Positions 13,999 through 31,800 of a stretch of 48,284 nt of DNA are shown here, piece by piece (the first letter of the stretch is position 1; each line of letters starts with the position of its first letter). The notes under the pieces were generated by a model that was given only the letters and a program-made list of their open reading frames with translations, did not search any database and had not been told where the DNA came from. Source of the stretch: Minisyncoccia bacterium (lineage in GTDB: Bacteria > Patescibacteriota > Minisyncoccia > Phycocordibacterales > Phycocordibacteraceae); assembly GCA_041623915.1 (NCBI GenBank), contig JBFJWB010000001.1, forward strand, positions 1 through 48,284. The letters are read 5' to 3'. A program made the position numbers and the translations under genes.

Positions 13999-14496
13999 CT
14001 AGTTAACGGTAAGTACCCCTACCATTCCTTGAGCACGGTGACTCCCTACAGAACAATAATACTCAAATGTGCCAGATGAATTAGCTACAAATTCAATAGT
14101 TTCTTGCTCACCTGAGCGAATCTTCTTGGTGGAGGCGCTAAACTCGTCAATGACGAAGTCATGAAAACCATCAATATTTTTGAATGTTACACGCACTGTA
14201 TCACCTTTGTTTACGTTCATGGATGCTGGCATGAAAGAGAAATTCCTTCCTTCAATAGCAAATTCCTTAATAGTTGTGTCTGCTCCTGCTTCTATTTTTG
14301 CGCCATCGGCTGAAACATCTCCTTCAATATTATCACTAACTCTTGTCTCAGTGTCTGGCTCTTCAATGACACTTTCTTCAGAAGTATGGGTTTTTTTCGT
14401 ATCGATCGTAGAAGTTTCTGTATTTTTATCAGATATTAGGGTGTATCCTGCAAAAACAAATGAGCCAATAGCTATTATCAAAATAAGTGTTTTCAT
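13999..14496 (-). CDS. Cupredoxin (plastocyanin/azurin-like blue copper protein), membrane anchored
   Basis: N-terminal TM, then C-terminal copper ligands in FHDFVI ... YYCSVGSHRAQGM (His...Cys-x2-His-x4-Met pattern). Confidence 0.8.
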   Translation of the reverse strand: MKTLILIIAIGSFVFAGYTLISDKNTETSTIDTKKTHTSEESVIEEPDTETRVSDNIEGDVSADGAKIEAGADTTIKEFAIEGRNFSFMPASMNVNKGDTVRVTFKNIDGFHDFVIDEFSASTKKIRSGEQETIEFVANSSGTFEYYCSVGSHRAQGMVGVLTVN

Positions 14497-14612
14497 AATT
14501 TATATTTGTGCCTAGGTATAATATAAGAAAGTATAGCAATTATTGCCATTGAATCTCTGAGTATTTTCAAGTATTGTCTCAATACCTGCAGTGCTTTCGC
14601 ATTGTGGGTATT

Positions 14613-14686
14613 TGGGGGATCGTCTAATGGTAGGACGACTGGTTCTGGTCCAGTTAATCGGGGTTCGAGTCCCTGTCCCCCAGCCA
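14613..14686 (+). tRNA. tRNA-Gln (CTG), CCA encoded
   Basis: Acceptor TGGGGGA/TCCCCCA (U1:A72), anticodon stem ACTGG/CCAGT with loop TTCTGGT, T arm CGGGG-TTCGAGT-CCCTG, then GCCA. Confidence 0.9.
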
Positions 14687-14709
14687 ACTCGTGCGAGGTT
14701 CTTGCGCTC
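14680..14709 (+). repeat. Left copy of a 30-nt direct repeat (tRNA-Gln 3' end plus flank); candidate attL
   Basis: CCAGCCAACTCGTGCGAGGTTCTTGCGCTC matches 38919-38948 at 28 of 30 positions. Confidence 0.6.
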
Positions 14710-14725
14710 GAGACGCGTAGTTTGA
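14704..14725 (+). repeat. Partial copy of the 5' end of the 94-nt R element
   Basis: GCGCTCGAGACGCGTAGTTTG matches the first 21 nt of R1 (38831) and R2 (41079) with one or two mismatches, then diverges. Confidence 0.5.
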
Positions 14726-14778
14726 GAGTCTAGTGGACACTGTTGTTGCCTCAGAGTGCAATTTTCCTTTTTAAGGAA

Positions 14779-14799
14779 TTAGTGTATAAAATACACATG
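14779..14799. promoter_or_regulatory. NrtR-box-like site overlapping the nrtR start codon (possible autoregulation)
   Basis: TTAGTGTATAAAATACACATG contains GT-N7-AC and shares TTAGTGTATA with the site at 15513. Confidence 0.35.
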
Positions 14800-15462
14800 T
14801 CAAAAAATAAAGCACCACGCTTTGCTGTAGTTGCAGTAGATGCGGTTTGCTTTTCGATTTTAGAGAACAAACTCCACGTACTTCTTGGTGAGGTAAACAT
14901 AAAGCCATTTTATGCTGACCGACTTGGTCTCATTGGTGGGTTAGTAGCACCAGAGCAGAGTGCTGAAGAGGCGGTAGAACAGCAACTTATGAAGAAGGTG
15001 GGTATAACGAACCTATATAAAGAGCAACTCCATACATTTAGCAAGCTAACGCGTGACCCACGCAACAGGGTAATTTCTATTGCGTATTTGTGCCTCACAG
15101 CAGACCCTTTTGAGATGCGAGGAGGATCAATTCAGACTATTTGGTGCCCTATAGATGAGGTGCCCGATCTTGCGTACGATCATAACGAAATACTCAGTGT
15201 TGCTGTAGAGCGCCTACGTTCGAGAGTAGGGTATACCAATGTCATACAACATTTCCTTCCCAAAGAGTTCACATTAACAGATTTGCAAGGCGCATATGAG
15301 ACCGTGCTTAACCGCTCGCTTGATAAGCGCAATTTCAGAAAAAAGGTGAAAGATGTGCAATTAGTTCGGGCAACAGAGAAGAAGATCAAGAGGGGGGCAA
15401 GTCGGCCTGCAGAGCTGTATCGCTTTGCCTCTCGCGGTCTGACCGCCATCGAAATCCTTTAG
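14797..15462 (+). CDS. nrtR: NrtR-family transcriptional regulator (degenerate Nudix domain plus C-terminal winged helix)
   Basis: The Nudix box is degenerate (GGLVAPEQSAEEAVEQQLMKKVGI; RE changed to EQ, EE changed to KK). The C-terminal FTLTDLQGAYETVLNRSLDKRNFRKKV...RPAELYRF is typical of NrtR. Confidence 0.8.
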   Translation: MSKNKAPRFAVVAVDAVCFSILENKLHVLLGEVNIKPFYADRLGLIGGLVAPEQSAEEAVEQQLMKKVGITNLYKEQLHTFSKLTRDPRNRVISIAYLCLTADPFEMRGGSIQTIWCPIDEVPDLAYDHNEILSVAVERLRSRVGYTNVIQHFLPKEFTLTDLQGAYETVLNRSLDKRNFRKKVKDVQLVRATEKKIKRGASRPAELYRFASRGLTAIEIL

Positions 15463-15498
15463 TCCTGCAGAGTGCTCCGCAGATGTGGATAGTAATAC

Positions 15499-15538
15499 TT
15501 GACACCATTATCTTAGTGTATATACTACACTAAGATAA
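15499..15538 (+). promoter_or_regulatory. Sigma70-like promoter overlapped by a 31-nt palindrome (candidate NrtR operator)
   Basis: TTGACA (15499-15504), 16-nt spacer, TATACT (15521-15526). The palindrome TTATCTTAGTGTA-TATAC-TACACTAAGATAA (15508-15538) has perfect 13-bp arms and a GT-N7-AC core. Confidence 0.55.
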
Positions 15539-15724
15539 AACACAGGGACATGTTTTACTTGACGAGTTAGCATTTTTCTAGTAAAGAAAGCAAACCCATA
15601 GACACTTATGTCAAGACGTTTCAAGCTCTCGAGAGAGGGAATGAGTCGTCTCGACATTAGGCCGAGATGTTCTTTTAAAAACCTATACTCATCGCAGTTA
15701 AAGCTGTATTAGGAGGATGCTCAA

Positions 15725-16564
15725 ATGGATACATTCCAAATAGCTGGCGCTTCGGTGCCAGGAGTGGACCACATCATGCCAGGCAAGCCCGGTTGGAAAA
15801 ACAACCAGGATGCCTTCTTGTGGAGGCAGTCATCGCAACACATCATTGGTGTGGTTTGCGACGGTTGTGGCAGTAGTCAGTACAGCGAAGTGGGCGCCCG
15901 CGTGGGTGCTCATGTCGTCGTGGATACTGCGGATCTCATCCTCGGCAATAGTGCTATTTCGGCCGACTCTTCAGAGTCTGCCGAGGCATTCTGTCGGGAT
16001 CTCACCCAAAAGGCGTGTGCTCGTCTTACGACAATTATTTCGCTGCTCGGTGGTGATTTCAAGGATGTCGCACTGGATCAGTTTCTTTTCTCGACGGTTG
16101 GTTTCGTACTAACGTCGAATGCGTTGCTGGTCTTCTCGTGCGGTGATGGGGTGTACGCAATAAACGGCAAGATCGCGACCATCGGTCCGTTCCCCGGGAA
16201 TGCACCGCCCTATCTAACGTATTCGTTGCTTTCCGGGAAAACGTCATTCACGCAACAAGCCTTACGGCCCGCTGATGACGTGCAGTCGGTATTGATCGGC
16301 ACAGACGGCGTTGCGGATCTCATTGCGGTAGCGGATGTTGATATGCCGGGTCAGAAGGACGCCATTGGCCATCTCAGTCAATTCTGGGATACCGAAAAAT
16401 TCTTCAAAAACCCGGACGCCATCCGTCGCCGGCTTGCGCTCGTGAACCGTGAACGTGTTCTCGATGGCCGTATTAAACACGGTTTGTTACATGACGATAC
16501 GACACTCGTTGTTCTTCGACGGGTATTCCAGCAAGGAGAGGGCATATGCCACACTACTTCCTGA
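15725..16564 (+). CDS. PP2C-family protein phosphatase (PP2C_2-like)
   Basis: Strong RBS AGGAGG 9 nt upstream. Motifs KNNQDAF, GVVCDGCGSS, SCGDG and IGTDGVADL are typical of bacterial PP2C-like phosphatases. Confidence 0.8.
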   Translation: MDTFQIAGASVPGVDHIMPGKPGWKNNQDAFLWRQSSQHIIGVVCDGCGSSQYSEVGARVGAHVVVDTADLILGNSAISADSSESAEAFCRDLTQKACARLTTIISLLGGDFKDVALDQFLFSTVGFVLTSNALLVFSCGDGVYAINGKIATIGPFPGNAPPYLTYSLLSGKTSFTQQALRPADDVQSVLIGTDGVADLIAVADVDMPGQKDAIGHLSQFWDTEKFFKNPDAIRRRLALVNRERVLDGRIKHGLLHDDTTLVVLRRVFQQGEGICHTTS

Positions 16565-18411
16565 AAAGTGGACAGCGTCTCCGGCTTCGGCCGGACAGTG
16601 CTGTCGGTAAGGGTGGCGAGGCTGATGTCTTTCTTGACAAAGGTCGTGCCGTGAAAATCTTCAAACCACCAACGCATGCTGATCTCGCGGGTAATCCGCA
16701 GGAACAGGCTGCATCAAAGGAACGTCTTGCTGAGCATCAGCACAAACTACCAACCTTCCCGAGAGGTCTTCCTTCGCGGGTCGTGGCTCCACGTGAGCTT
16801 GTCTATGACGCCAAGAACCGCATCGCCGGTTATTGCATGGATCATGTGGCAGGTGCTGAAGTGCTCTACCATTATGGGGAGCGGTCCTTCAGAGATGCCG
16901 GCGTTTCGGACGATACCGTAGTCTCAGTATTGGCAGATCTGCACCGTACGGTACAGGCTGTACACGATGCGCAGGTCATCATTGGAGACTTCAATGACAT
17001 GAATGTTCTGGTTAAGCAGACCGCAGCATTCCTCATCGATGCGGACAGCATGCAGTGGGGGTCATGGAAAACGCGGGTATTTACGGCGAGGTTCGTCGAC
17101 CCGCTTCTATGCGATCCGCATGCAAAGTCGTTAATGCTAGCCAAGCCACATACCGAACATTCTGATTGGTATGCGTACGCAGTTATGCTGATGCGACTAC
17201 TGCTGTTTGTCGAACCATTTGGGGGTGTCTATATGCCAAAAGATCCGAAAAAGCGTGTTGTGCATACGCAACGTCCGCTTAAACGGATCACGGTGTTTGA
17301 TCCTGAGGTGCGGTATCCCAAACCTGCACGACCATACCACATTCTTCCGGATGACTTGCTTGATTTCTTCGAGCAAACCTTCGCGAAGGATATGCGTAAA
17401 GTCCCGCCATACTCGCTGGTCGAGAATCTTCGGTTCGCGACTTGTACCAAGTGTGGCACCGTGCATGCGCGGGGAACCTGTCCTTCGTGTATAACTATCA
17501 CACCGCCTATGCGGAAAGAGGTGCACGCGGGCAGGATTTCGGCATTCAAGGAGTTCACCACCTTCGGAGTCATTCTGTACGCCACTATCGACGGCGATAC
17601 GCTCCGCTACCTGTATCATCGGGACGGAGTGTACGTACGTGAGAATGACGTGCGGGTGCTGTCCGGTGCTCTCGATCCACACATCCGGTACCGCATTAGC
17701 GGTTCACGGACAGTGATGGGTCGCGGTGAACGGGCACTCCTTCTCGAAGGAGATGTTCCAGAGCAATTCGCCACAGATGCCCACAATCTTCTTTCGCTCT
17801 TCGATGCAAACAGGAAGCATGTCTTCTATGTGCACGCAGGCGGGCTATGGAGGGTGAGCAACCTTGGTGTCCAGTATCCAGAACGATGGGGCGACGTGCT
17901 TGCACGACAGACCCTGTTCTGGGTGGGTGAGAAATTCGGTTTTGGGTTCTATCGGGCAGGGGAGCTTTGTCGCTTTTTTGTCTTCAACACGACTCATGCC
18001 GGTATCAACGATTCGGTCAACTTGCCGCCACTTAGTGGCCAGCTGGTCGATGCGACGTGCTGTTTCGGCAAGGACCGCATTTGGTTCTTCGTCGCAACTA
18101 GCGAAGGTGGACAGACCGTTCATCGGTGTCACGTTCTCGATGGTCGCGGAACATATCTCGCAAGTGCTGACGCCATTGCCGGAGACGGTAGTTGGCTCCA
18201 GACTTTGCGCGGGAAGTGTGCTGCAAACGATTTCCTGCTTTCGGCAACTGATAATGGTGTCGTACGTGTGGAAGTCGGGAACGGCGTAGCCGTGACCAAA
18301 GAGTTTCCTGCAACCACGGAGTTCGTTGATTCTGACTCGCGCATCCTCCTTGGTAGCAAGGGGCTCTACACGATCAGAAAGAACGAGATTTGGCGGTTGG
18401 TTCTCAAATAG
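16546..18411 (+). CDS. Protein kinase-like protein with a Zn-ribbon and a C-terminal domain of about 300 aa of unknown function
   Basis: Overlaps the PP2C gene by 19 nt. Gly-rich loop GKGGEADVF, Lys in AVKIF, catalytic loop IIGDFNDMNVLV (D-x4-N), metal-binding LIDADS, and CTKCGTVHARGTCPSC. Confidence 0.75.
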   Translation: MPHYFLKSGQRLRLRPDSAVGKGGEADVFLDKGRAVKIFKPPTHADLAGNPQEQAASKERLAEHQHKLPTFPRGLPSRVVAPRELVYDAKNRIAGYCMDHVAGAEVLYHYGERSFRDAGVSDDTVVSVLADLHRTVQAVHDAQVIIGDFNDMNVLVKQTAAFLIDADSMQWGSWKTRVFTARFVDPLLCDPHAKSLMLAKPHTEHSDWYAYAVMLMRLLLFVEPFGGVYMPKDPKKRVVHTQRPLKRITVFDPEVRYPKPARPYHILPDDLLDFFEQTFAKDMRKVPPYSLVENLRFATCTKCGTVHARGTCPSCITITPPMRKEVHAGRISAFKEFTTFGVILYATIDGDTLRYLYHRDGVYVRENDVRVLSGALDPHIRYRISGSRTVMGRGERALLLEGDVPEQFATDAHNLLSLFDANRKHVFYVHAGGLWRVSNLGVQYPERWGDVLARQTLFWVGEKFGFGFYRAGELCRFFVFNTTHAGINDSVNLPPLSGQLVDATCCFGKDRIWFFVATSEGGQTVHRCHVLDGRGTYLASADAIAGDGSWLQTLRGKCAANDFLLSATDNGVVRVEVGNGVAVTKEFPATTEFVDSDSRILLGSKGLYTIRKNEIWRLVLK

Positions 18412-18434
18412 TACTGCAAAGTAAGGAGTCGTTC

Positions 18435-19511
18435 ATGAACGCAACAACATCTCTTCCACCGCCAGCATTTTTCAACCCGAAAAACGCCGGTGACTGGAAC
18501 TATAGCCCGGATCAGCGCGCCATCTATATGGCCGCCGATGACATTCGGCAGAGTGCCGGGCTGAAGGCCGCTACGACTGACTGTAAGAAGGTGCATTTGC
18601 TCCTGATTGATGTCCAGAAGGACTTCTGCCTACCCGGTGGAACGCTCTATGTGGGCGGACGGTCGGGAACGGGAGCTGTTGATGACTCACGCAGGATCGC
18701 GGAATTCATTTACCGCAATCTCAATGTCATTTCCAGCATAACGACGACTTTGGATACGCACTTCGCGTTCCAGATCTTCTCTCCCGCGTTCTGGCAGGAT
18801 CAGGACGGTGCGCCACTGTTGCCGTTTGACAATGTCACGGGCGACCTGACGGTCCTCCGTGCTGGTCAACCGGCCGGTAAGGCGACGCCGAGCCCGCTCG
18901 CAGCCGCGGTCGTGGCCAATGGCAACCTTGCCTGGCTCCAAAAGCAGGCGGCCTATTACTGTCGCATGCTCGAGGAAGGCGGAAAGTACCAGCTCACGAT
19001 CTGGCCGGAGCATTGCATCCTGGGATCTGACGGGCACGCGCTCACCGGCGTCATCCACGAAGCGCGCATGTACCATGCGTTTGCGCGTGGCGCCCAGAGC
19101 CTCTCCGAGGTAAAGGGCGGGAATCCGCTCACCGAGTGCTATTCAGTGCTCGGTGCGGAAGTGCGCACCCGCTTCGATGGTCAACCGCTCGCCCAGAAGA
19201 ACGTCAAGTTCATTCAGACGCTGTTCACTGATGACTATGTGGTCATCGGCGGCCAGGCGGCTAGTCATTGTGTGAAGTCGTCAATCGAAGATCTGCTGGA
19301 TGAAATCCTGGCGAAGGACCCGGTGCTCGCACGCAAGGTCTATGTGATGAGGGACTGCATGTCCTCTGTCACTGTTCCGGATGGAAACGGCGGTTTCATC
19401 GCCGACTTCACGCCGGAAGCCGAGCAGGCGCTCGACAAGTTCGCAAATGCCGGTATGCATGTTGTGGAAAGCACGATGTCTATGGCCGACTGGCCGGACT
19501 TCAATCTGTAA
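18435..19511 (+). CDS. pncA: Nicotinamidase (isochorismatase superfamily), long form
   Basis: RBS AAGGAG. Motifs LLLIDVQKDF, LDTH and WPEHCILGSDGHAL (nicotinamidase WPxHC signature). Catalytic Cys in GGQAASHCVKSS. Confidence 0.8.
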   Translation: MNATTSLPPPAFFNPKNAGDWNYSPDQRAIYMAADDIRQSAGLKAATTDCKKVHLLLIDVQKDFCLPGGTLYVGGRSGTGAVDDSRRIAEFIYRNLNVISSITTTLDTHFAFQIFSPAFWQDQDGAPLLPFDNVTGDLTVLRAGQPAGKATPSPLAAAVVANGNLAWLQKQAAYYCRMLEEGGKYQLTIWPEHCILGSDGHALTGVIHEARMYHAFARGAQSLSEVKGGNPLTECYSVLGAEVRTRFDGQPLAQKNVKFIQTLFTDDYVVIGGQAASHCVKSSIEDLLDEILAKDPVLARKVYVMRDCMSSVTVPDGNGGFIADFTPEAEQALDKFANAGMHVVESTMSMADWPDFNL

Positions 19512-19568
19512 CCCGGTGCCGATAGTCGCGAAGCGCGGCTATCGGCCCATCAACCAAGGAGCACTCAC

Positions 19569-20354
19569 ATGAGTGAAGCAACAGTAGAAAACCTCTTCTC
19601 AGGAGCAGCATCCATAGGAATGCTGGGCCCGGAAGCTCTGGAAGCAGTCGACATCGAAGATCTCGGCGAGCAGATCCAGGCCGGGCTTGGCATCTCACCT
19701 GATGATGTTCAGGCGAGCGAAGTCACTCTGGTGGCACTGCTCATCGACGACTCGAGTTCCATTCGTTTCGCCGGTCACACCGACTTGGTGCGGGAAGGTC
19801 ACAACCTGATCGTCTCGTCACTGGCGGAAACCAAGCAGAAGGACAGCATCCTGATTCACAATCGTTACCTGAATGGGCAGATTCTGTATCCATTCGTTCA
19901 AGTTGGTGACGCCGAACAGATGGATACGTCCAACTACGACCCGGTCGGGGGTACGCCTTTGTACGATCAGGCTGTCGCTCTGCTAGCCACCGTGGCAGCA
20001 AAGTGTCAGGAATTTGCCAACAGTGGCGTTCCGGCGCGTGCTGTCATTGCCTGGATTACCGACGGTGCCGACCAGCATTCGCTTAAGTCGGCGCAAGACG
20101 TTGCCGTGGTGGCGAAGGATCTCCTCATGCAGGAGACCTTCATCATCATCGGTATGGGCATCAGCGATGGTGGTCAGACGGACTTCCGTGAGGTGTTCCG
20201 GAACATGGGTGTTGAGGACGAATGGATTTTGACACCCGGCAATTCACCGAGCGAGATCCGAAAGGCGTTTGCCATGGTTTCGCAATCGTCGGTGCAAGCG
20301 AGTCAGGGTGCGCAGTCCTTCAGCGAAACTGCGATGGGTGGCTTCGGGAGTTAA
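19569..20354 (+). CDS. von Willebrand factor A domain protein (TerY-like)
   Basis: MIDAS motif in VALLIDDSSSI, later TDGADQHS. About 260 aa, a size typical of TerY-like vWA proteins. Confidence 0.8.
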   Translation: MSEATVENLFSGAASIGMLGPEALEAVDIEDLGEQIQAGLGISPDDVQASEVTLVALLIDDSSSIRFAGHTDLVREGHNLIVSSLAETKQKDSILIHNRYLNGQILYPFVQVGDAEQMDTSNYDPVGGTPLYDQAVALLATVAAKCQEFANSGVPARAVIAWITDGADQHSLKSAQDVAVVAKDLLMQETFIIIGMGISDGGQTDFREVFRNMGVEDEWILTPGNSPSEIRKAFAMVSQSSVQASQGAQSFSETAMGGFGS

Positions 20355-20528
20355 TTCCGAAGTCTTGGTTTTTGTTCTTCTCTGGGCAACAGGGAGAGCG
20401 TCATGCTCTCCCTTCCCAGATTGAGATTCCTTTTGGAATCTCCTTTATGGAGTGCTTGAGTTATGCTCGAGCCCTCCTCAAGGAGATTTTTTCAGTTCTT
20501 TTCAAACATCATATACGTGGAGGTCATC

Positions 20529-22370
20529 ATGACACACACGCTTGACATCAAAGTTGCTGTGGCACAGATGCGCCCCATGATCAGTGCTATTCGTCACAAT
20601 GTTGACTGTATATTGAAGCAGATTCGGGAAGCGCACATCGGTGGCGCTGATATCATTGTCTTTCCAGAACTCGCCACATCTGGCTATGTTCTGGGCGACC
20701 GATGGGAGCAGGAGGCTCTCATTCGCGAGATCGAAGCTCTCGACGAGGAGATCCGTGCAGCAAGCATGGGTATCATTGTAGTTTGGGGTTCAGTTAAAGT
20801 CGATTGGCAGAAAATCGGCGAGGATGGTCGTGTCCGCAAATACAATGTGGCGCGGATTGCCGCAAATGGAACGTGGGTATCAAATGGGTTGCTCGACGGG
20901 TGGATCCCCAAGACCAACCTGCCCAAGTATCGGATCTTCGACGACGCACGCCACTTCTATACGAGTGCAAATCTCGCAGCGGAGATGGGGTGCAAGGTCG
21001 ATGAACTGCTCCGGGTTTTCTCGGTTCAGTGTAGGGGCAAAAACCTGTCGCTTGCGCTCACGATCTGCGAGGATCTCTGGGAGGATGAATATCTCACCAA
21101 GCCCTCGCGCATTTATGGCGCACAGTGTCCTGATCTGCTGATCGACATCTCGGCCTCGCCTTGGACGGCGGGCAAGTGTATGGCACGTGATCGTATGCTT
21201 GTGCGCCGTGTGCAGGACTCGGGTCTCCCGATTCTGTATGTGAACGCTGTAGGACTTGAGAACAACACCAAGAACCTTATTTGGTTCGATGGTGATTCAG
21301 CGTTCGTCAATACCGAAGGAGCTATTATTTGGCGTGCACCACAGCACAGTTCAGGGTTGTTCTATGCTGAGCTTGCGGGGACTCAACAAGTAGTTCCCGA
21401 GCGGTTGTCCGGCGTTGCCGAGATTCATGGAGCACTCGTTTCAGCCATGCGCGAGTTCTTTGGTCCGTTCAATAGAGTCGTCATCGGATTATCTGGTGGC
21501 ATCGATTCTGCGGTCTCGGCTGCGCTTTTGGTTGAAGCACTGGGTCCTGAGAAGGTGTTGGCAGTCAACATGCCGACGATGTTTAACTCGACTACGACGC
21601 AACGGTTGGCAGCACAGTGTGCAGGAAATTTGGGTATCGAGTATCATGTAGTACCGATACAACAGCTTCTTGATACCCACTGTGCAGCGCTGACTACTGC
21701 TGGCTTTACTTATCCGGAGGGTTTAGTTCTGGAGAATATCCAGGCTCGTATTCGTGGAGCAGGTATCCAGGCGACCTTGGCGCAGATGGAGGGTGGCGTG
21801 TTTGTCTGTAACGGCAACAAAACCGAAGTGGCTCTCAACTACTTCACGCTGTATGGCGATGGAGCGGGTGCCGCAGCGTTCCTTGCGGATCTTTGGAAGG
21901 GGCAGGTTTACGAGCTTGCACGGTTTTTGAATCAGCGTGCTGGTCAGGAACTGATTCCGGAAGGAATCCTAACATTAGTGCCTTCAGCAGAACTCTCAGA
22001 AGAGCAGAACGTCGAGGAAGGGAAAGGGGACCCAATCTTCTATCCTTACCATGACAAGCTCCTTCGGGCGTTCACGGAGAGGCGCTGGGACCCAACAACG
22101 GTTCTTGCGTACGCGATCGCAAACGATCTTGAGGCACAACTCGGTTGTGAACCAGGAACGCTTGGCGCATTCTTCTCCACTCGAGCGGCTTTTGTAGAAA
22201 ACCTCGAGTGGGCATGGGAGTGTTACAGTGTCGAGTTTAAACGCGCACAAACACCACCAGTGTTTCTCGCATCGCGTCGCGCCTTCGGTTTTGATCGCCG
22301 TGATACGATTTCAGCGGGGTATCTCACGGAAGAGTATCGTACTCTCAAGGCGCGCTATCTGTCTGCCTAA
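20529..22370 (+). CDS. nadE: Glutamine-dependent NAD+ synthetase (CN-hydrolase domain plus NAD synthase domain)
   Basis: RBS GGAGG. The N-terminal nitrilase-like domain has FPELATSGY and LTICEDLW. The PP-loop is GLSGGIDSAVSA in the C-terminal half. Confidence 0.9.
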   Translation: MTHTLDIKVAVAQMRPMISAIRHNVDCILKQIREAHIGGADIIVFPELATSGYVLGDRWEQEALIREIEALDEEIRAASMGIIVVWGSVKVDWQKIGEDGRVRKYNVARIAANGTWVSNGLLDGWIPKTNLPKYRIFDDARHFYTSANLAAEMGCKVDELLRVFSVQCRGKNLSLALTICEDLWEDEYLTKPSRIYGAQCPDLLIDISASPWTAGKCMARDRMLVRRVQDSGLPILYVNAVGLENNTKNLIWFDGDSAFVNTEGAIIWRAPQHSSGLFYAELAGTQQVVPERLSGVAEIHGALVSAMREFFGPFNRVVIGLSGGIDSAVSAALLVEALGPEKVLAVNMPTMFNSTTTQRLAAQCAGNLGIEYHVVPIQQLLDTHCAALTTAGFTYPEGLVLENIQARIRGAGIQATLAQMEGGVFVCNGNKTEVALNYFTLYGDGAGAAAFLADLWKGQVYELARFLNQRAGQELIPEGILTLVPSAELSEEQNVEEGKGDPIFYPYHDKLLRAFTERRWDPTTVLAYAIANDLEAQLGCEPGTLGAFFSTRAAFVENLEWAWECYSVEFKRAQTPPVFLASRRAFGFDRRDTISAGYLTEEYRTLKARYLSA

Positions 22371-22385
22371 CCACGTTATGTTTGA

Positions 22386-22494
22386 ATGCCAGGGGAAAGG
22401 ATTCCCCTGGCATCTCTCTTAATGCGATATCCATCGCATTAGTGATATGGGCCGAACTTAATTCGACCCATATCACTGTTTCGATGGGAAACAG
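22386..22494 (+). promoter_or_regulatory. Array of four consecutive perfect hairpins between nadE and pncB, the last followed by a T-run
   Basis: Stems are 12 bp (22386-22413), 9 bp (22420-22441), 10 bp (22442-22476) and 7 bp (22476-22494), then TTCTTTTT. Confidence 0.4.
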
Positions 22495-22557
22495 AGTTCT
22501 TTTTAACGTTAATCCTATACACTCATCAGTTGTCCTGCATAAGGCAAGGAGGAGGTC

Positions 22558-23931
22558 ATGACAGACTTCATTCAACGAGTTCTGCGTCCTGAACGCCCGG
22601 ACTGGATCATTCGTTCACTCTTGGATGTGGACTTCTACAAGTTCACCATGGGGTATTTCATTCATCGTTTTTTTCCGGAGGTACAAGTTACGTTTCGCTT
22701 CATAAACCGACACCCGCACATTCCAGTTGCTGAGCTAGTGGACGAGGACGAATTGCGTGCCCAATTGGATCACGTACGTACACTTCGTTTTCGCCGCACC
22801 GATATTTACTACCTTCGGGGTATGGATGTCTATGGTGAGGCGATGTTCTCGCGTGAATATCTGGATTTTCTGGCTGGGTTGAAACTCCCGCCCTATACAC
22901 TGGACCGTCGTGGTGACCAGTACGAGATTCAATTTACTGGCACATGGGCAGAGGTTACTTTTTGGGAAACCATTGCCATGGCAATCGTCAATGAACTTGT
23001 ATACCGTACTTTGCTACAGGGCATGGCAGAAGACCGTTCCACTGGTGAATCTGGTCTCCAGATTCTATACGCTCGTGCTACCGACAAGCTATACCACAAG
23101 TTGCAACGACTTGCGGAGAATCCGTCGATCCATTTTGCTGATTTCGGCAAACGTCGCCGGCACAGTTTTCTGTGGCAGCAGTTTGCCATCGAAATGGCGG
23201 AAGAGGTCGTTGGGCAGGGTCTCACTGGTGTCTCGAACACCTGGATGGCTTTCAACAAGGATCTGGTCCCAATCGGAACCAATGCGCATGAACTGCCTAT
23301 GGTGCTTACTGCACTTGCAGATACCAACAACGCGAAGCGTGATGCGCAGTACATGGTTCTTGAAGCTTGGGGGAATCTGTTTCCGCAGAATGCACTCCGC
23401 ATTATGTTGCCGGACACTTACGGCACGGAACAGTTCTTCTCTGGAATGTCGGAAGACATGGCTCATGAGGTTTCGCACGCCTGGCGTGGGTTGCGTGGCG
23501 ATTCCGGCGATTTGGTTGTGGAAGGTGAACGCTACATCAAGTGGCTCACTCAACACGGTGTTGATCCCAAGGAAAAGCTCTACATTCCGTCTGACGGATT
23601 GGATGTAGAGGGTATCCTCAAGCTTAACCAAGCGCTCGGCGGTCGTGTTCAACTCGCATATGGATGGGGCACGAAGTTCACCAACGACTTCGAGAGTTGC
23701 CATCCACACGGAAACGAACCGGCGGTTGTCAATGGTAAAAAGCTCCATCTCACCTGGGATCAGTTGCTTCGTGGGCATTCATTTGTTTGCAAAGTTGCAT
23801 CGGCAGACGATAAACCCGCCGTGAAGCTAAGCAACAATGTCAACAAAGCTACGGGTCCTGTAGCTGAAATTGACCGGTACCTGCGTGTCTTCGGCGAGAA
23901 AGGACGTCTTCAGCAGAGGGTTGAAGTGTAG
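22558..23931 (+). CDS. pncB: Nicotinate phosphoribosyltransferase
   Basis: RBS AAGGAGGAGG. N-terminal LLDVDFYKFTMGY, GTNAHELPM and RGDSGD motifs of NAPRTase. Confidence 0.9.
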   Translation: MTDFIQRVLRPERPDWIIRSLLDVDFYKFTMGYFIHRFFPEVQVTFRFINRHPHIPVAELVDEDELRAQLDHVRTLRFRRTDIYYLRGMDVYGEAMFSREYLDFLAGLKLPPYTLDRRGDQYEIQFTGTWAEVTFWETIAMAIVNELVYRTLLQGMAEDRSTGESGLQILYARATDKLYHKLQRLAENPSIHFADFGKRRRHSFLWQQFAIEMAEEVVGQGLTGVSNTWMAFNKDLVPIGTNAHELPMVLTALADTNNAKRDAQYMVLEAWGNLFPQNALRIMLPDTYGTEQFFSGMSEDMAHEVSHAWRGLRGDSGDLVVEGERYIKWLTQHGVDPKEKLYIPSDGLDVEGILKLNQALGGRVQLAYGWGTKFTNDFESCHPHGNEPAVVNGKKLHLTWDQLLRGHSFVCKVASADDKPAVKLSNNVNKATGPVAEIDRYLRVFGEKGRLQQRVEV

Positions 23932-23959
23932 GCCTAACGTTCATTTGCGTTCTTTTAAC

Positions 23960-23991
23960 AAAACGCTCCGATTTCGATTGGAGCGTTTTTA
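23960..23991 (+). terminator. Rho-independent terminator closing the NAD/TerY-P-like operon
   Basis: AAACGCTCC-loop-GGAGCGTTT followed by TT. Confidence 0.75.
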
Positions 23992-24023
23992 TAATTACAC
24001 AGACACACTATGCATGAAGCCGA

Positions 24024-25340
24024 TCACTTTAAATCAATATTCTTTTTGGTTAAAACAATGCTACTCCTTAAGCATCCAAGCAGTTCACGTTTTTCCGTAT
24101 TCAAACCTTCTTTCAAGAGATACTTTGCGTAGTTTCGTATTTCTATAGAGAATATAGAAATATTTTCCCTTTTCCCCAACAGTGCGTATTGAAATTTCTT
24201 GTGTCGTGCAACTTCCTCCTTTATTTTCTCTTTAACTCCAATCTCGTTTATATCAATTTTGTCCAGCAGATATTCAAACTGATTTAGGAGGTCTTTCTCG
24301 TTTATGTAACCACATTTACAGTTTTTATCCTTCGATTTCGAACAACCATAATAAACATACCTATGAATGTTGCCGTTCTTTTGCTTCTTGAATTTCTCAT
24401 CAGCAGTAATTCCAGAGCCACAGAGACCGCAGGTCATTAATTTCGTAAATGCAAACTCCTTGCCTTCGGACCGAACAAATTGACTCTTTATTTGCTTTTG
24501 AGCGGCGTCGAATAGCTCTTTGGTGATAATTGGTTCATGCTTGCCTTGATACCAATTACCAGATTTCTTTGGGTACTCAAAAGTACCGTAATAGAAGTGA
24601 TTTTGAAGAATGACGTAGATATTACTGAGAGTCAGATTCTTGTTTCCGTTTACCGTCCTAAAATTCAAATCAAACTTCAGCCAGTGATATATCTTCCGAC
24701 CACTCCATTTCTCATAGGCGACCTTTTCATACATCTGCTTGACGATCGGTGCTCGGTCTGGATCAATAAGCGTTTCACACTTTCTGTCCACTCGCTTTTC
24801 TTTAAGATAACCAGTCGGAGCGGGCGCTGGCCACAATCCCATTTCTACCCGCGTCTTTAACCCACGTTTTACATTGATACTCTTGTTATCGTTTTCAAGC
24901 TTTGCCTGGCTACACAGGATCATCAGAAGGAACTTTTCGTTTGGTGAGTTATGGAAGTGTTGCCCATGCGTTCGTATGTCGATAAGAAATTTCTGATCCA
25001 TAAGATCGACGACTGACCCTAGATCACCAGCATTTCTGCTCAATCGATCGGGTGCCCAAGCAAGGATGCCGGTATATCGACCTCTTTGTATGTCTTCTAG
25101 GATCTCTTTGAAAACTGGTCGTTGTCCCGAATCTTTTGCTGAATGGGCTTCGCGCCTTATATCAACAACATCAAGGTTTTCTCTTTCGGCTATGGCAAGC
25201 ATTTCTTTCACCTGTGATTCAATAGAAAGTGCTTGTTTCTCATCCTGCTCGGTCGACTTTCTTGCATAGAGCACATACTTTACTTTCTCCACCGGCGTAG
25301 CCGGGTGAGACACCACGGGTGTATTGATTTGTGTATTCAT
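24024..25340 (-). CDS. Large serine recombinase (phage-type integrase)
   Basis: Resolvase catalytic domain YVLYARKSTEQDEKQALSIESQ...AWAPDRLSRN, a recombinase domain, and a Zn-ribbon CGLCGS...YVYYGC. The start is taken at MNTQINT (25340) because the upstream 60 codons look non-coding. Confidence 0.9.
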   Translation of the reverse strand: MNTQINTPVVSHPATPVEKVKYVLYARKSTEQDEKQALSIESQVKEMLAIAERENLDVVDIRREAHSAKDSGQRPVFKEILEDIQRGRYTGILAWAPDRLSRNAGDLGSVVDLMDQKFLIDIRTHGQHFHNSPNEKFLLMILCSQAKLENDNKSINVKRGLKTRVEMGLWPAPAPTGYLKEKRVDRKCETLIDPDRAPIVKQMYEKVAYEKWSGRKIYHWLKFDLNFRTVNGNKNLTLSNIYVILQNHFYYGTFEYPKKSGNWYQGKHEPIITKELFDAAQKQIKSQFVRSEGKEFAFTKLMTCGLCGSGITADEKFKKQKNGNIHRYVYYGCSKSKDKNCKCGYINEKDLLNQFEYLLDKIDINEIGVKEKIKEEVARHKKFQYALLGKRENISIFSIEIRNYAKYLLKEGLNTEKRELLGCLRSSIVLTKKNIDLK

Positions 25341-25653
25341 AGGCCACCATTGATGCCAGAGATGGTGGGGAAGTAAAGAGCGCTGTCTCCATCTCCATGG
25401 CTTAGCAAAATAGGCCTTCTGCGATAGTATAGGGTCGTGGTGTTGTGAGGCACCACGTTGTTGGAGAACTCCCGACAGCGGCCTAACCCTCAAGTGTTTC
25501 GCTTGAGATATGGCCTTCAAAACGCTGTAGATAGAAAACCCGTCATCAGGGCGTCTACAGCGTTATAGGGGGAAACTCCTATAGACCCGCAAGGGTTCCT
25601 GGTGGCGGGTTTTGTGATACCCGCTTCCTGGATTTATCCGATAAAAGACTCGC

Positions 25654-26127
25654 ATGGAAAATCAGGAAGCAACAAAAAAGAAGATTTATAAGAAATGGTG
25701 GTTTTGGGTGATTGTGGTACTTGTGCTTGCGGCAATCGGCAATACAAGCAGTGAGTCTGTGTCGCAAGGCAATCTTCAGTCTGGAGAAGCAATATCTCAA
25801 CAGCCACGAGAAGCGATTGTGGTCACAGCGCTCAAGTTGTATACCGATTACGATGCAAATGAAGTTGCTGCAGACGCAAAGTACAAAGGCAACCTCGTTC
25901 GTGTTTCGGGCACGGTAGGATCTATCGGTAAAGACGTGCTCGACACACCGTACGTCACGCTTTCTGCGGACCAGTACGATTTCAAGTCCGTACAGTGTAT
26001 GTTCGGTACGAAGGATTCCGCAGTTCTCGCAGAACTCTCAAAGGGTCAGCAAGTAACTCTTGAGGGTGAAGTGTCAGGAAAGAGCCTCACCAATGTTCTT
26101 GTACGATCTTGTCGCGTTGTTAACTAG
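25654..26127 (+). CDS. Membrane-anchored OB-fold (tRNA_anti-like) protein
   Basis: N-terminal TM WWFWVIVVLVLAAIG, then LYTDYDANEVAADAKYKGNLVRVSGTVGSI...VQCMF, which resembles the tRNA_anti-like OB-fold family. Confidence 0.5.
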   Translation: MENQEATKKKIYKKWWFWVIVVLVLAAIGNTSSESVSQGNLQSGEAISQQPREAIVVTALKLYTDYDANEVAADAKYKGNLVRVSGTVGSIGKDVLDTPYVTLSADQYDFKSVQCMFGTKDSAVLAELSKGQQVTLEGEVSGKSLTNVLVRSCRVVN

Positions 26128-29634: not shown

Positions 29635-29640
29635 GGATTA

Positions 29641-29784: not shown

Positions 29785-29788
29785 AAGT

Positions 29789-31793: not shown

Positions 31794-31800
31794 GTTTTCT

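Follow-up and report, generated by a model that had tools for sequence, protein, structure and literature searches.

Why should genes for a protein kinase, a protein phosphatase and a vWA protein lie among genes of NAD+ salvage behind an NrtR-type repressor? The question is raised by a locus in a 48,284-nt stretch of DNA from a Minisyncoccia bacterium (assembly GCA_041623915.1, contig JBFJWB010000001.1, positions 1-48,284, forward strand), referred to below as the window. The cassette consists of nrtR (14797-15462) followed by six ORFs on the same strand spanning 15725-23931, in agreement with the original prediction of six co-directional genes. An AGGAG-type Shine-Dalgarno sequence precedes all six, again as predicted, and the seven genes of the cassette are real genes. 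Features lie on the forward strand unless noted. In the literature searched, we found no prior description of a set under NrtR that unites nicotinamidase, kinase, PP2C phosphatase and vWA protein.

The four core genes

Core gene 1 (15725-16564) encodes a PP2C-family Ser/Thr phosphatase (Pfam PP2C_2, E 1e-13). Residues D29, D46-G47, G140-D141-G142, D194-G195 and D257-D258-T259 are at least 95% conserved among 77 sequences; D29, D46, D194 and D257 are the metal-binding aspartates. The gene overlaps core gene 2 by the 19 nt that had been claimed (16546-16564), and the following core genes are separated by gaps of 23 nt and 57 nt. Core gene 2 (16546-18411) encodes an atypical Ser/Thr kinase with a CxxC-x8-CPxC zinc ribbon, which resembles Nop10, and a C-terminal all-beta (propeller-like) domain. 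Its Pfam Pkinase score of 28 bits falls below the cut-off of 31.7, but the Gly-loop, K37, D148/N153 and D165/D167 are invariant among homologues, as are C300, C303, C312 and C315 of the zinc ribbon. In an AlphaFold2 model (pLDDT 86), the top Foldseek matches were the kinase-WD40 half of LRRK2 and eukaryotic-type protein kinases. At E <= 1e-30, homologues of this kinase amount to 798 cluster-50 representatives.

Between the kinase and vWA genes, where the original prediction had placed it, lies a gene for a long-form, PncA-like nicotinamidase of 358 aa (core gene 3, 18435-19511; the ATG at 18435 is a likelier start than the TTG at 18390). Its matches to Pfam Isochorismatase (E 1.4e-3) and to the NCBIfam nicotinamidase profile are weak. 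Its motifs align with those of M. tuberculosis PncA and the Leishmania nicotinamidase, and D59, D107-x-H109, H193, K227 and C279 are invariant among homologues. The solved nicotinamidases that it matches are 186-227 aa long. The cassette protein carries an N-terminal extension and an insertion of about 100 aa, and its substrate could therefore differ from free nicotinamide; some loci encode an additional N-terminal domain, about 260 aa long and matching no known fold. Core gene 4 (19569-20354) encodes a vWA protein of divergent sequence. Its MIDAS is complete, its N-terminal extension is helical, and its C-terminal tail is rich in Ser and Gln and conserved. Sequence searches of Pfam, PADLOC and the PDB returned zero matches to it. 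Its AlphaFold2 model (pLDDT 88) matched vWA/integrin I domains in Foldseek with probability 1.0, and 32 homologues all share the MIDAS residues D60-x-S62-x-S64...T129...D165.

Profiles support the identities of the PP2C protein and, as described below, of NrtR, NadE and PncB. The kinase, nicotinamidase and vWA protein are supported by weak profile matches together with the invariance of their catalytic or MIDAS residues; structure prediction adds support for two of them, the kinase and the vWA protein. The initial assignments of PP2C, kinase and vWA were thus upheld by profiles, residue conservation and structure prediction; in the four core proteins the catalytic motifs said to be intact are invariant or at least 95% conserved in homologues, and to judge from these residues the core enzymes look active.

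Conservation of the core and its neighbours

The proposed linkage of the triad to NAD genes could have been peculiar to this contig. We examined 44 well-flanked species loci, with at least 5 kb upstream and at least 8 kb downstream of the kinase gene and at most 10 kb considered on each side. The order PP2C-kinase-nicotinamidase-vWA was intact in 42 of the 44, NrtR was encoded within the flanks of 30, and at least one NAD-synthesis gene was found in the flanks of 21; the linkage therefore recurs. The core is found in CPR bacteria, cyanobacteria, proteobacteria, myxobacteria, planctomycetes, acidobacteria and one archaeal MAG, with 45-65% protein identity across distant phyla and at least 426 species-level occurrences, most of them (for example in cyanobacteria and Archangium) with ordinary chromosomal flanks. 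Three long-nicotinamidase homologues picked without reference to the kinase all sit within the same four genes. PP2C, kinase, nicotinamidase and vWA thus constitute one four-gene unit. Fusions joining the nicotinamidase to genes of the triad were not found.

Nearly all of the variable neighbours belong to NAD or ADP-ribose metabolism. The commonest accessory gene in the 44 loci is PncB (16), followed by NadD or NadD-NadK (12), NadE (9), Nudix (7), ADP-ribosylglycohydrolase (5; 10 among all loci studied) and Prs (4). In locus L104 a single array reads NAPRTase-Prs-NadE-NrtR-Nudix-PP2C-kinase-PncA-vWA. Among 149 further neighbours are extra isochorismatase, NADAR, NAPRTase and NAD_synthase genes; some neighbourhoods contain LSDAT, radical SAM, NADAR and methyltransferase genes, and the Archangium core is interrupted by a ThsB-like TIR gene. 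Within the examined flanks, about one third of loci have neither NrtR nor a strict box, and about half have no NAD-synthesis gene. The invariant core enzyme is the nicotinamidase, not PncB or NadE. This neighbourhood content favours regulated salvage or tolerance of NAD depletion over a classical defence system.

Predicted control by NrtR

The nrtR product, a member of the ADP-ribose-responsive repressor family, has a Nudix-like sensor domain and a winged-helix DNA-binding domain (Pfam NrtR_WHD, 81 bits, plus NUDIX; NCBIfam NtrR, E 1.7e-34, under the equivalog cut-off). As read from the translation, its Nudix box is degenerate (RE to EQ, EE to KK), which is usual among non-catalytic NrtR regulators. 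Published NrtR sites are 21-bp palindromes with a GT-N7-AC core, and NrtR is released from them by ADP-ribose in vitro. Two such 21-bp palindromes with GT-N7-AC, and only two, were found in the window, against 0.11 expected by chance. Box 1 (14779-14799, TTAGTGTATAAAATACACATG) overlaps the nrtR start codon, predicting autoregulation. Box 2 (15513-15533, TTAGTGTATATACTACACTAA) overlaps the -10 element of the operon promoter. That promoter, which had been placed at 15499-15526, is indeed a sigma-70-like TTGACA-16-TATACT (11/12 matches) and the top-scoring site within 14400-25800; promoter and box are 89% conserved in the related locus L007. The positions of both boxes make functional sense.

The predicted NrtR wiring has more support than was apparent at the outset and extends well beyond this contig. 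In 32 of the 44 loci the 400 bp ahead of the PP2C gene contain an NrtR-type box (background 0.04 per 420 bp); boxes stand in tandem in 19 loci, and 106 of the 133 boxes found across loci fall 500-2000 bp upstream of the kinase start. The motif precedes PP2C in most of 80 related loci, often in tandem and across phyla. Scanning the 48-kb window revealed no NrtR box ahead of nadE or pncB.

Accessory NAD genes and co-transcription

Downstream of the core lie two accessory genes. NadE, a glutamine-dependent NAD+ synthetase (20529-22370; the ATG at 20529 is a likelier start than 20463), has Pfam CN_hydrolase and NAD_synthase domains and matches NCBIfam PRK13981 (E 4e-100) with a score of 335.7, below the curated cut-off of 479. 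PncB, a nicotinate phosphoribosyltransferase (22558-23931), has NAPRTase_N and NAPRTase domains and scores 375 bits against the PRK05321 cut-off of 379. No NadD was found within the 48-kb window, bearing out the absence noted at the outset.

A single strong terminator had been proposed to close the operon. The intrinsic terminator is present between pncB and the convergent recombinase gene (23960-23990; 13-bp stem, -17 kcal/mol, z = -5.5, followed by UUUUUAU), but "one" is incomplete, as hairpins with U-runs also occur further upstream. One lies on the vWA stop codon (20340-20364, -14.6 kcal/mol, z = -3.9) and is a possible partial terminator of the core. Others occupy the nadE/pncB intergenic region (22386-22494), where a strong hairpin at 22386-22414 (-22.2 kcal/mol) is joined by one at 22476-22494 followed by a U-run; in L007 this intergenic position holds a nadD gene. 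Given these stable structures, it is not assured that nadE and pncB are transcribed together with the core, and the claim of a single operon over 15725-23931 is uncertain. With no NadD in the window and no NrtR box at nadE or pncB, the full pathway is neither encoded nor demonstrably co-regulated here.

A probable island, and copies in viruses

The cassette is of horizontal origin. Just upstream is a tRNA-Gln(CTG) gene (14613-14686; ARAGORN and Rfam), the probable left junction of an island. Its 3' end and downstream sequence (14663-14723) are repeated at 38902-38962 with 77% identity, and this degenerate direct repeat is a candidate right junction. GC content rises from 0.40 before the tRNA gene to 0.47-0.57 just past it and drops back to about 0.45 once 38 kb is passed; the cassette genes have a GC3 of 0.54-0.70, versus 0.32 in the host CTP synthase gene. 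A large serine recombinase is encoded on the reverse strand at 24024-25520 (Resolvase, Recombinase and Zn_ribbon_recom domains; PHROG integrase, E 2e-65), and TerL and TerS packaging genes, a Sie-like gene and a ParB-methyltransferase gene lie near the cassette. Together these features suggest that the cassette probably resides on an island of about 24 kb adjoining tRNA-Gln. We saw no genes for capsid, portal or tail proteins in the island, which may therefore be a remnant.

Sixteen IMG/VR contigs, 42-436 kb in size and all but one at least 84 kb, also carry the core, as do GenBank huge-phage genomes; phage LR756500 (462 kb) carries divergent PncA-vWA-kinase genes together with NadE, and a Myoviridae kinase has the same fold as the cassette kinase over its full length. 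Neither NrtR nor NrtR boxes were found with the copies in large viral contigs, and the core proteins matched no PHROG family. Misclassification of cellular DNA could account for several of the IMG/VR "viral" contigs.

What the cassette may do

NrtR regulators respond to ADP-ribose, and the Preiss-Handler pathway rebuilds NAD+ by established chemistry. Our preferred explanation, which we hold to be somewhat better than an even bet, is a mobile, ADP-ribose-inducible NAD+ rescue cassette working through that pathway, with its nicotinamidase gated by a kinase/PP2C/vWA phospho-switch. At rest, NrtR would occupy the two 21-bp operators, on the promoter -10 element and on its own start codon, keeping the genes off. 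Cleavage of NAD+ by NADases, ADP-ribosyltransferases or sirtuins would liberate ADP-ribose, which would bind the degenerate Nudix domain of NrtR; the repressor would then leave the DNA and the core operon would be transcribed. Nicotinamide, the other cleavage product, would be converted by the long nicotinamidase to nicotinate, from which PncB would make NaMN, and NadE would amidate NaAD to NAD+. The adenylyltransferase step would be supplied from elsewhere in the genome or, in related loci, by a linked NadD or NadD-NadK fusion, often accompanied by Prs, a Nudix hydrolase and ADP-ribosylglycohydrolase. Kinase, PP2C and MIDAS-vWA protein, which are always inherited along with this nicotinamidase, would form a reversible switch acting on nicotinamidase activity or assembly, the propeller and zinc ribbon of the kinase serving as input sensor and the vWA protein as a phosphorylated adaptor that binds the nicotinamidase through its MIDAS site. 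We infer both the substrate of the long nicotinamidase and the entire phospho-switch step, and the triad could instead serve some other kind of sensing or signalling. There is a precedent in P. aeruginosa, where an NADase toxin derepresses the NrtR-repressed pncB/nadD2/nadE salvage genes, which neutralise the toxin.

Could the cassette instead be a weapon? As a TerY-P-type anti-phage system, the triad would sense infection and the nicotinamidase would be the effector: destruction of nicotinamide would block phage NARP1, NARP2 and NadV and relieve product inhibition of host NADases, NAD+ depletion would become irreversible for the phage, and ADP-ribose from a first-line NADase would induce the genes via NrtR. 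The published TerY-P architecture (vWA, PP2C, Ser/Thr kinase then zinc ribbon), the invariance of the nicotinamidase, the mobile, island-borne cassette, the TIR gene in Archangium and the use of nicotinamide by phage NARP pathways all fit. We nevertheless consider this quite unlikely: PP2C, vWA and nicotinamidase match no PADLOC model, TerY-P included, and the kinase gives only weak, generic matches to PD-T4-6 and MkoA; the recurrent neighbours rebuild NAD rather than being nucleases or TIR or SIR2 effectors; and carriage of the core by huge phages fits an anti-phage role poorly. Another reading is that in this contig the cassette travels as cargo on a temperate phage, a satellite or an integrative element and acts as a counter-defence that restores NAD+ by the deamidated route against host Sir2, TIR or SEFIR depletion, as a fourth NARP-like strategy kept silent by NrtR in the lysogen until ADP-ribose appears. 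NAD+ reconstitution by phages is an established strategy, and the occurrence of the core in large IMG/VR contigs and huge-phage genomes, the position of the cassette between tRNA-Gln and the serine integrase, among phage-type genes, its foreign GC and GC3, and the candidate att repeat 24 kb away agree with cargo. We rate it as unlikely in view of the ordinary chromosomal flanks of most occurrences, the island devoid of capsid, portal and tail genes, and the lack of PHROG matches for the core; it shares the biochemistry of the preferred explanation and differs only in who benefits.

The unusual length of the nicotinamidase, with its insertion and extensions, also raises the idea that the enzyme acts on NMN, nicotinamide riboside, NAD+ or an ADP-ribose-derived signal, or that the kinase phosphorylates a small molecule, the module making or destroying a nucleotide-like metabolite rather than salvaging NAD+. 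The LSDAT, radical SAM, NADAR and methyltransferase neighbours would suit such a role, but the nicotinamidase-specific metal site (D-x-H...H) and D-K-C triad are invariant, the kinase folds like a protein kinase and has a PP2C protein phosphatase as its partner, and PncB, the commonest accessory, uses nicotinate; we find it very improbable. Finally, since NrtR salvage operons and vWA/kinase/PP2C triads each exist independently, a triad might simply have inserted into an ordinary salvage operon with no functional link. The synteny census effectively refutes such a chance event: gene order is conserved in distant phyla, the boxes precede the PP2C gene and not the nicotinamidase gene, and the long nicotinamidase occurred only within the core in all three blind samples.

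On the rescue explanation, the beneficiary is the replicon that carries the cassette: a cell would recover from NAD+ depletion, and a phage or integrated element would escape NAD+-depletion immunity. The combination of nicotinamidase, kinase, phosphatase and metal-binding adaptor spans hundreds of species and some giant phages.

Comparison with known systems

In architecture the cassette is like TerY-P (Anantharaman, Iyer & Aravind 2012; as an anti-phage system, Gao et al. 2020), which, as summarised in PMC11090510, likewise combines MIDAS-vWA, PP2C and a Ser/Thr kinase then zinc ribbon in a compact, horizontally mobile unit. The originally proposed likeness holds to that extent, but the PADLOC TerY-P models match none of PP2C, kinase and vWA. 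The cassette vWA falls outside all Pfam vWA families, its kinase has an extra beta-propeller-like C-terminal domain of about 300 aa, and a nicotinamidase gene always separates the two; control is by NrtR, with linkage to NAD genes and not to Ter, restriction or CoCoNuT systems. Deinococcus radiodurans DRA0331-0334 (bioRxiv 10.64898/2026.01.23.701218) is, according to its abstract, similarly an operon of vWA, Ser/Thr kinase and PP2C forming an antagonistic signalling module; it differs in its FHA protein and DNA-damage context, and neither a nicotinamidase nor NrtR nor NAD genes come up in the abstract. Iyer et al. (2022, PMC9503650, section 3.8) describe systems centred on ADP-ribosylglycohydrolase, with vWA chaperones and regulators of the Nudix-HTH or WYL type. 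These share an NrtR-like ADP-ribose-sensing repressor, an occasional vWA and the glycohydrolase, which is an accessory in 10 of the loci that we studied. They differ in uniting the glycohydrolase with rhodanese-type phosphatases, TY-chaperones and nucleases, and that section describes no kinase, PP2C or nicotinamidase.

NrtR also regulates Preiss-Handler (salvage I) operons, for example nrtR-nadD<>pncA-pncB-nadE in Pseudomonas and nrtR-pncA-pncB-nadD-nadE in Clostridium (Rodionov et al. 2008, PMC2330246; Santi et al. 2024, PMC11535050). Both they and the cassette have a Nudix-wHTH repressor, a 21-bp GT-N7-AC operator and pncA/pncB/nadE content, and the derepression by NADase-released ADP-ribose that in those operons buffers NAD+ depletion is predicted for the cassette as well. 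In the cassette, however, the operator governs the four-gene core, the 358-aa PncA is flanked by kinase, PP2C and vWA genes, and pncB and nadE stand outside the regulated core as optional accessories; the NrtR regulons tabulated in 2008 (PMC2330246) contain no kinase, PP2C or vWA genes. Phages reconstitute NAD+ through NARP1 (Adps+Namat), NARP2 (Nampt+Nmnat), NARP3 (PnuC+NadR-like) and, in jumbo phages, NadV/NadM. Like these, the cassette would rebuild NAD+ from cleavage products amid NAD+-depletion immunity, and it too is borne by phages, very large ones included. Unlike them, it uses wholly different enzymes along the deamidated route from nicotinamide through nicotinate, NaMN and NaAD to NAD+, carries a phospho-signalling triad and, in its cellular copies, is predicted to be gated transcriptionally by ADP-ribose.

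The genes of the cassette

Seven co-directional genes were called on the + strand between 14797 and 23931 of the window. The first, nrtR (14797-15462), encodes a protein with a NUDIX domain at its N-terminus (Pfam, 29.5 bits) and an NrtR_WHD domain at its C-terminus (81.4 bits against a cut-off of 27). It matches the NCBIfam NtrR equivalog with an E-value of 1.7e-34, yet falls under the clade-specific cut-off, and its Nudix box, read from the translation, is degenerate like that of other non-catalytic members. There follow a PP2C phosphatase gene (15725-16564; Pfam PP2C_2, E 1e-13), the gene of a 621-aa kinase (16546-18411; Pkinase, 28 bits, under the cut-off), an isochorismatase/nicotinamidase-like gene with weak profile matches (best start an ATG at 18435, end at 19511) and the gene of a 261-aa protein without a profile match (19569-20354). 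The last two genes encode NadE (best start an ATG at 20529, end at 22370) and PncB (22558-23931). We refer to the phosphatase, kinase, long (358-aa) nicotinamidase and 261-aa von Willebrand factor A-like (vWA) protein as the core, and to the same set less the nicotinamidase as the triad. The predicted 19-nt overlap between the PP2C and kinase genes is present, as are the predicted ribosome-binding sites, which are of AGGAG type. Among the predicted protein assignments, NrtR, PP2C, NadE and PncB stood up to profile searches; the kinase stayed under its cut-off, the nicotinamidase matched weakly and the vWA protein not at all.

In NadE, an N-terminal CN_hydrolase (glutaminase) domain and a C-terminal NAD_synthase PP-loop domain both score above their Pfam cut-offs. 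The match to NCBIfam PRK13981 (E 4e-100, 335.7 bits) is strong but below the curated cut-off of 479, and TIGR00552, the nadE domain model, is the one NCBIfam model whose cut-off is exceeded (132.2 against 63.65). PncB exceeds the Pfam cut-offs for both NAPRTase_N and NAPRTase and lies marginally under that of NCBIfam PRK05321 (375.1 against 379). NadD had been noted as missing, and queries with NadD and NadD-NadK proteins from related loci likewise found none in the window.

Conserved residues and predicted folds of the core proteins

The metal-binding aspartates of the PP2C protein are at least 95% conserved among 77 sequences. The kinase aligns end to end with 20 homologues from distant lineages at 62% mean column identity; in all of them the Gly-loop, K37, D148/N153 and D165/D167 are invariant, as is a zinc ribbon, CxxC-x8-CPxC (C300-x2-C303...C312-P-x-C315), which weakly resembles Nop10. 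In an AlphaFold2 model (pLDDT 86), the kinase domain is followed by the ribbon and then by an all-beta C-terminal domain of about 300 aa, and structure searches match the model best to the kinase-WD40 half of LRRK2 and to numerous eukaryotic-type protein kinases. A longer representative of the kinase family (P0497, 808 aa) carries about 190 additional C-terminal residues that match no Pfam family.

Searches of Pfam, PADLOC and PDB sequences with the 261-aa protein were empty, so structure prediction was needed to place it. Its model (pLDDT 88) matches solely vWA and integrin I domains, with a probability of 1.0, and the MIDAS residues D60-x-S62-x-S64, T129 and D165 are invariant in 32 homologues. 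The 1131 homologues of the protein are without exception annotated as hypothetical.

The 358-aa enzyme is a long form of nicotinamidase: its N-terminus is extended, and some 100 aa are inserted. It scores under curated thresholds (Pfam Isochorismatase, 19.2 bits against 27; NCBIfam PRK11609, 33 against 174); some of its homologues have a precomputed PF00857 match and the NCBI name nicotinamidase. Its nicotinamidase motifs align with those of Mycobacterium tuberculosis PncA (3pl1) and a Leishmania enzyme (3r2j), and both an Asp-Lys-Cys triad and a D-x-H...H metal site are present. D59, D107-x-H109, H193, K227 and C279 are invariant in 21 sequences, phage copies included; K227 is taken as the catalytic lysine from conservation, pairwise alignments placing R218 opposite Lys96 of M. 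tuberculosis PncA. At six related loci (L014, L016, L031, L043, L060 and L086), the kinase and nicotinamidase coding regions lie about 650-800 bp apart. In the two that were inspected, L014 (11824-13674) and L086, the open reading frame runs through the gap to give a nicotinamidase of about 600 aa, whose extra N-terminal 260 or so residues have no Pfam match.

The core is conserved across distant lineages

The conserved linkage of the core is the main result of this analysis. Over 1700 close relatives of the kinase were counted; at E <= 1e-30 the family falls into 798 clusters of 50% identity, and matches occur in at least 426 species-representative genomes. The best 80 loci comprise about 29 from CPR (Patescibacteria) metagenome-assembled genomes (MAGs), about 25 from cyanobacteria and 8 from "Gammaproteobacteria" MAGs; Myxococcota (Archangium gephyra, a complete genome), Planctomycetota, Acidobacteriota, Gemmatimonadota, Desulfobacterota and one Aenigmatarchaeota MAG are also among them. 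The order PP2C-kinase-nicotinamidase-vWA recurs nearly everywhere among the related loci.

Our census took in the 44 loci whose sequence extends 5 kb or more upstream and 8 kb or more downstream of the kinase gene. The core is complete in 42 of the 44, NrtR is encoded nearby in 30, and a strict GTGT-N7-ACAC box lies no more than 400 bp ahead of the PP2C gene in 32, where the background is 0.04 per 420 bp, with two tandem boxes at 19 of the 44 loci. PncB is present at 16 loci, a NadD-type adenylyltransferase, usually fused to NAD kinase, at 12, NadE at 9, a Nudix hydrolase at 7, ADP-ribosylglycohydrolase at 5, Prs at 4 and a radical SAM protein at 3. The linkage between the triad and NAD genes, whose recurrence across lineages had been proposed as a check, is conserved. 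Approached from the other side, long-nicotinamidase homologues picked without regard to the kinase lay inside the same core in three of three cases, one of them in the array NAPRTase-Prs-NadE-NrtR-Nudix-PP2C-kinase-PncA-vWA. Two close relatives of the cassette add further NAD genes: L007, which has an identical NrtR box, carries nadD between nadE and pncB, and L008 has an ADP-ribosylglycohydrolase gene between the vWA gene and nadE.

Several loci have unusual surroundings. In A. gephyra SDU49 (L078 11986-15408; NZ_CP102578), a 5-kb insert parts the kinase gene from the nicotinamidase gene. Its products are a ThsB-like TIR protein, Nmad2, MazG_C and a 5-hmdU DNA kinase helical domain, so that an NAD-consuming or defence and DNA-hypermodification islet sits within the NrtR-controlled module. 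On an Aenigmatarchaeota contig (L002 13981-15552 and 16953-17882), archaeal exosome and proteasome genes flank a block that holds the core together with a bacterial-type sigma-70 factor, ParB, two LSDAT_prok proteins, a radical SAM protein, PncB, NadE and a Nudix hydrolase; this block looks like a transferred island. On two JGI contigs of 1.7 Mb and 228 kb (L004 and L005), the core is intact and nearly all surrounding called genes are tiny fragments, such as a PAD_porph gene in three pieces, which suggests an alternative genetic code or poor assembly.

NrtR boxes and transcription of the cassette

A promoter-like TTGACA-16-TATACT lies at 15499-15526. Across its -10 element runs a palindrome, TTAGTGTATATACTACACTAA (15513-15533), of which a second copy, TTAGTGTATAAAATACACATG (14779-14799), reaches into the start codon of nrtR. 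These two are the only such matches in 48 kb (0.11 expected), and in sequence both agree with the known NrtR operator, a 21-bp palindrome built around a GT-N7-AC core, which NrtR leaves in vitro on addition of ADP-ribose (PMC2330246; PMC11535050). By analogy with the family, binding of the present NrtR to DNA would likewise be relieved by ADP-ribose. An Rfam search of the leader of about 190 nt found no riboswitch.

The original prediction had placed six genes, from PP2C to pncB, in one operon. No box occurs upstream of nadE or pncB at up to 3 mismatches; a hairpin with a U-run (-14.6 kcal/mol) follows the vWA gene, two more (-22.2 and -8.4 kcal/mol) lie between nadE and pncB, and a strong terminator (23960-23990, -17 kcal/mol) ends the cassette. 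With boxes at the promoter and nrtR only and hairpins before nadE and pncB, it is the four tightly packed core genes for which the predicted control by NrtR is secure; the co-transcription of nadE and pncB is uncertain. Transcriptional read-through from the core into these two genes is plausible.

The cassette lies on a probable integrated element

GC content jumps across the cassette from 0.40 to 0.53-0.57, and the GC3 of its genes is 0.54-0.70 against 0.32 in the host CTP synthase gene. A tRNA-Gln gene (14613-14686) lies directly upstream, and its 3' end and downstream sequence are repeated at 38902-38962. The interval holds a large serine recombinase, a Sie-like gene, TerL, TerS, a ParB-methyltransferase and an ImmA-like protease. 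It is probably an integrated element of about 24 kb, possibly a degraded prophage or satellite.

Among the phage-derived genes at 25654-30987, which are the Sie-like gene (25654-26127), TerL (26124-27602, minus strand), TerS, a ParB-DNA methyltransferase fusion and an ImmA-like metalloprotease, no structural phage genes are visible, which speaks for a satellite or a prophage in decay over a complete phage. Between the Sie-like gene and the 5' end of the serine recombinase gene, Rfam places a LOOT RNA (RF03000, 25480-25597, + strand) with 72 bits, the gathering score being 46. Further along the element, another group of nucleotide-centred genes occupies 31696-38820. It comprises DUF2779, a radical SAM enzyme (33767-35083), a PNP_UDP_1 phosphorylase (34629-35897), an ABC-type ATPase, an AAA_33/zeta-toxin-like kinase and a NUDIX hydrolase; the open reading frames of the phosphorylase and the radical SAM enzyme share about 450 nt. 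This radical SAM gene differs from the one that recurs beside the core elsewhere. A 95-nt repeat with 93% identity (38830-38924 and 41078-41172) flanks a prolyl oligopeptidase gene. The end of the repeat is like the T-arm and acceptor of a tRNA (GTTCGAGC...GGCCAGCCA), and its 5' part is similar to 14703-14725, just 3' of tRNA-Gln. ARAGORN and Rfam called no tRNA at either copy. Possibly pseudo-tRNA or att remnants, the repeats make the right end of the island harder to place.

Viral copies and searches of plasmids

The core is also carried by 16 IMG/VR contigs of 42-436 kb, 15 of which are at least 84 kb long, with ORFan-rich flanks that include PrimPol and ThyX. For none of the 16 was NrtR found within the available flanks or a box upstream of the PP2C gene. 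Two loci, L092 (2574) and L093 (12320), are the sole "viral" ones with an NrtR-type box near the core, placed between the kinase and nicotinamidase genes and not upstream of PP2C. In the 462-kb phage LR756500, divergent genes for the long PncA, a vWA-like protein and the kinase are adjacent and NadE is nearby, and a Myoviridae protein matches the whole kinase model (E 1.6e-27). Among GenBank phages, the kinase query gave distant kinase-domain matches only; the module occurs there solely as divergent copies, which were confirmed from their neighbours. The same query gave distant kinase-domain matches only among PLSDB plasmids; with no close match there, a plasmid-borne module was rejected. No PHROGs family was matched by the core proteins.

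What the cassette may do

The arrangement described in the original prediction is confirmed, and its main inference, that the triad is wired to NAD+ replenishment under an ADP-ribose-sensing repressor, is supported. The reading that we favour, with moderate confidence, is metabolic NAD+ rescue. Cleavage of NAD+ yields ADP-ribose and nicotinamide; the former would derepress the core, the long nicotinamidase would convert the latter to nicotinate, and PncB, an adenylyltransferase and then NadE would rebuild NAD+. At other loci, the Nudix hydrolase and Prs would recycle the ADP-ribose moiety to PRPP. Since the kinase, PP2C and vWA protein are never separated from the long nicotinamidase, we infer that they form a reversible phospho-switch on this enzyme, in which the propeller and zinc ribbon of the kinase would serve as sensor. 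The MIDAS-vWA protein, whose Ser-rich tail (SQS-x-VRASQ) is conserved, would be its adaptor or substrate. A precedent for the regulatory part exists in Pseudomonas aeruginosa, where the NrtR-repressed pncB, nadD2 and nadE genes are turned on by an NADase toxin, which they neutralise (PMC11535050).

The rival readings differ from rescue mainly in who benefits. As counter-defence cargo, the cassette would serve a mobile element; it lies on a probable one and the core occurs in large viral contigs. We consider this reading unlikely, though live. Less likely still, but likewise live, is an anti-phage defence system, which would account for a triad built like TerY-P. TIR near the core was found only in the Archangium insert, and TIR and SIR2 are absent from the 25 most frequent Pfam families of 149 further neighbours. 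There, methyltransferases are the top recurrent family (5), followed by isochorismatase (4), ADP-ribosylglycohydrolase and CTP_transf_like (3 each) and NADAR, NAPRTase and NAD_synthase (2 each), alongside several unrelated household families with 2-3 each; genes of NAD+ metabolism recur in this list, as metabolic rescue would have it.

Depletion of NAD+ is among the major outputs of immunity in prokaryotes (Thoeris, DSR, Sir2-HerA, SEFIR, short Argonautes, RES toxins), and how phages rebuild NAD+ is a frontier of present research. A wider reading, doubtful when taken whole, is that the core would be a "nicotinamide gate", so far unrecognised and widely transferred, that serves both parties in the NAD+ arms race. 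The phospho-switch would decide whether nicotinamide from immune NADases is cleared into Preiss-Handler resynthesis. Cells would wire the core to ADP-ribose through NrtR, recovering from NAD+-depletion immunity or toxins or, alternatively, starving the nicotinamide-dependent NARP pathways of phages; huge phages would use their NrtR-less copies to restore NAD+ during infection. If this were true, the enzyme would be the first post-translationally regulated nicotinamidase, and phages would have a fourth, deamidating route of NAD+ reconstitution. The cassette in any case offers a concrete hypothesis for how cells or mobile elements choose to reverse NAD+ depletion, and gives context to three large families annotated as hypothetical, those of the vWA-like protein, the 620-aa kinase and the long nicotinamidase. 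Cultured carriers make this hypothesis experimentally accessible; they include A. gephyra SDU49, Leptolyngbya sp. FACHB-321 and other strains of Leptolyngbya and of Spirulina.

Comparison with known systems

In its regulator, operator and enzymes the cassette is a member of the NrtR salvage regulons. The regulon tables of Rodionov 2008 (PMC2330246) hold nothing like the triad, and we rejected nrtX-nrtY from the same work as a prior description, this being a two-gene unit in other taxa. We found no description of the PP2C/kinase/nicotinamidase/vWA/NrtR combination in the literature searched on NrtR, TerY-P, phage defence and jumbo phages. The link of sensor, salvage and phospho-signalling is likewise absent from the comparative-genomics work examined on NAD+/ADPr, jumbo-phage and CoCoNuT systems and from the PADLOC catalogue. 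NARP1 (Adps and Namat), NARP2 (Nampt and Nmnat) and NARP3 (PnuC and a NadR-like protein) are functional analogues that have no enzyme in common with the cassette: Pfam and NCBIfam found none of their enzyme domains in 14.7-24 kb, and NARP3, being PnuC plus NadR, was rejected as a match. The ADP-ribosylglycohydrolase-centred Nudix/WYL systems (Iyer et al. 2022, PMC9503650) share the sensor logic but not the core.

The predicted likeness to TerY-P holds for the architecture, which combines a vWA protein, a PP2C and a kinase with a zinc ribbon, and fails for the PADLOC TerY-P profiles. A PADLOC search with the seven proteins gave no system, so a catalogued defence system, TerY-P or other, was rejected; the sole matches were weak, generic kinase ones to PD-T4-6 and MkoA. 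The vWA protein has the fold and MIDAS motif in common with that of TerY-P and nothing more, with no PADLOC match at E <= 0.1 and no Pfam vWA family. Both systems have a PP2C, that of the cassette (PP2C_2, E 1e-13) matching no PADLOC TerY-P phosphatase model, and both have a Ser/Thr kinase followed by a C-terminal zinc ribbon. As TerY-P has been described (PMC11090510), its kinase is fused to a C-terminal zinc ribbon or, in the Gao 2020 variant, to an OB fold; the propeller-like domain of the cassette kinase lies outside that description. Besides the propeller, the cassette differs in its embedded enzyme. Given the failure of the profiles, the added propeller and the embedded enzyme, we do not file it as TerY-P. 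The cassette joins two known kinds, a conserved module that couples an ADP-ribose sensor and nicotinamide salvage to eukaryote-like phospho-signalling.
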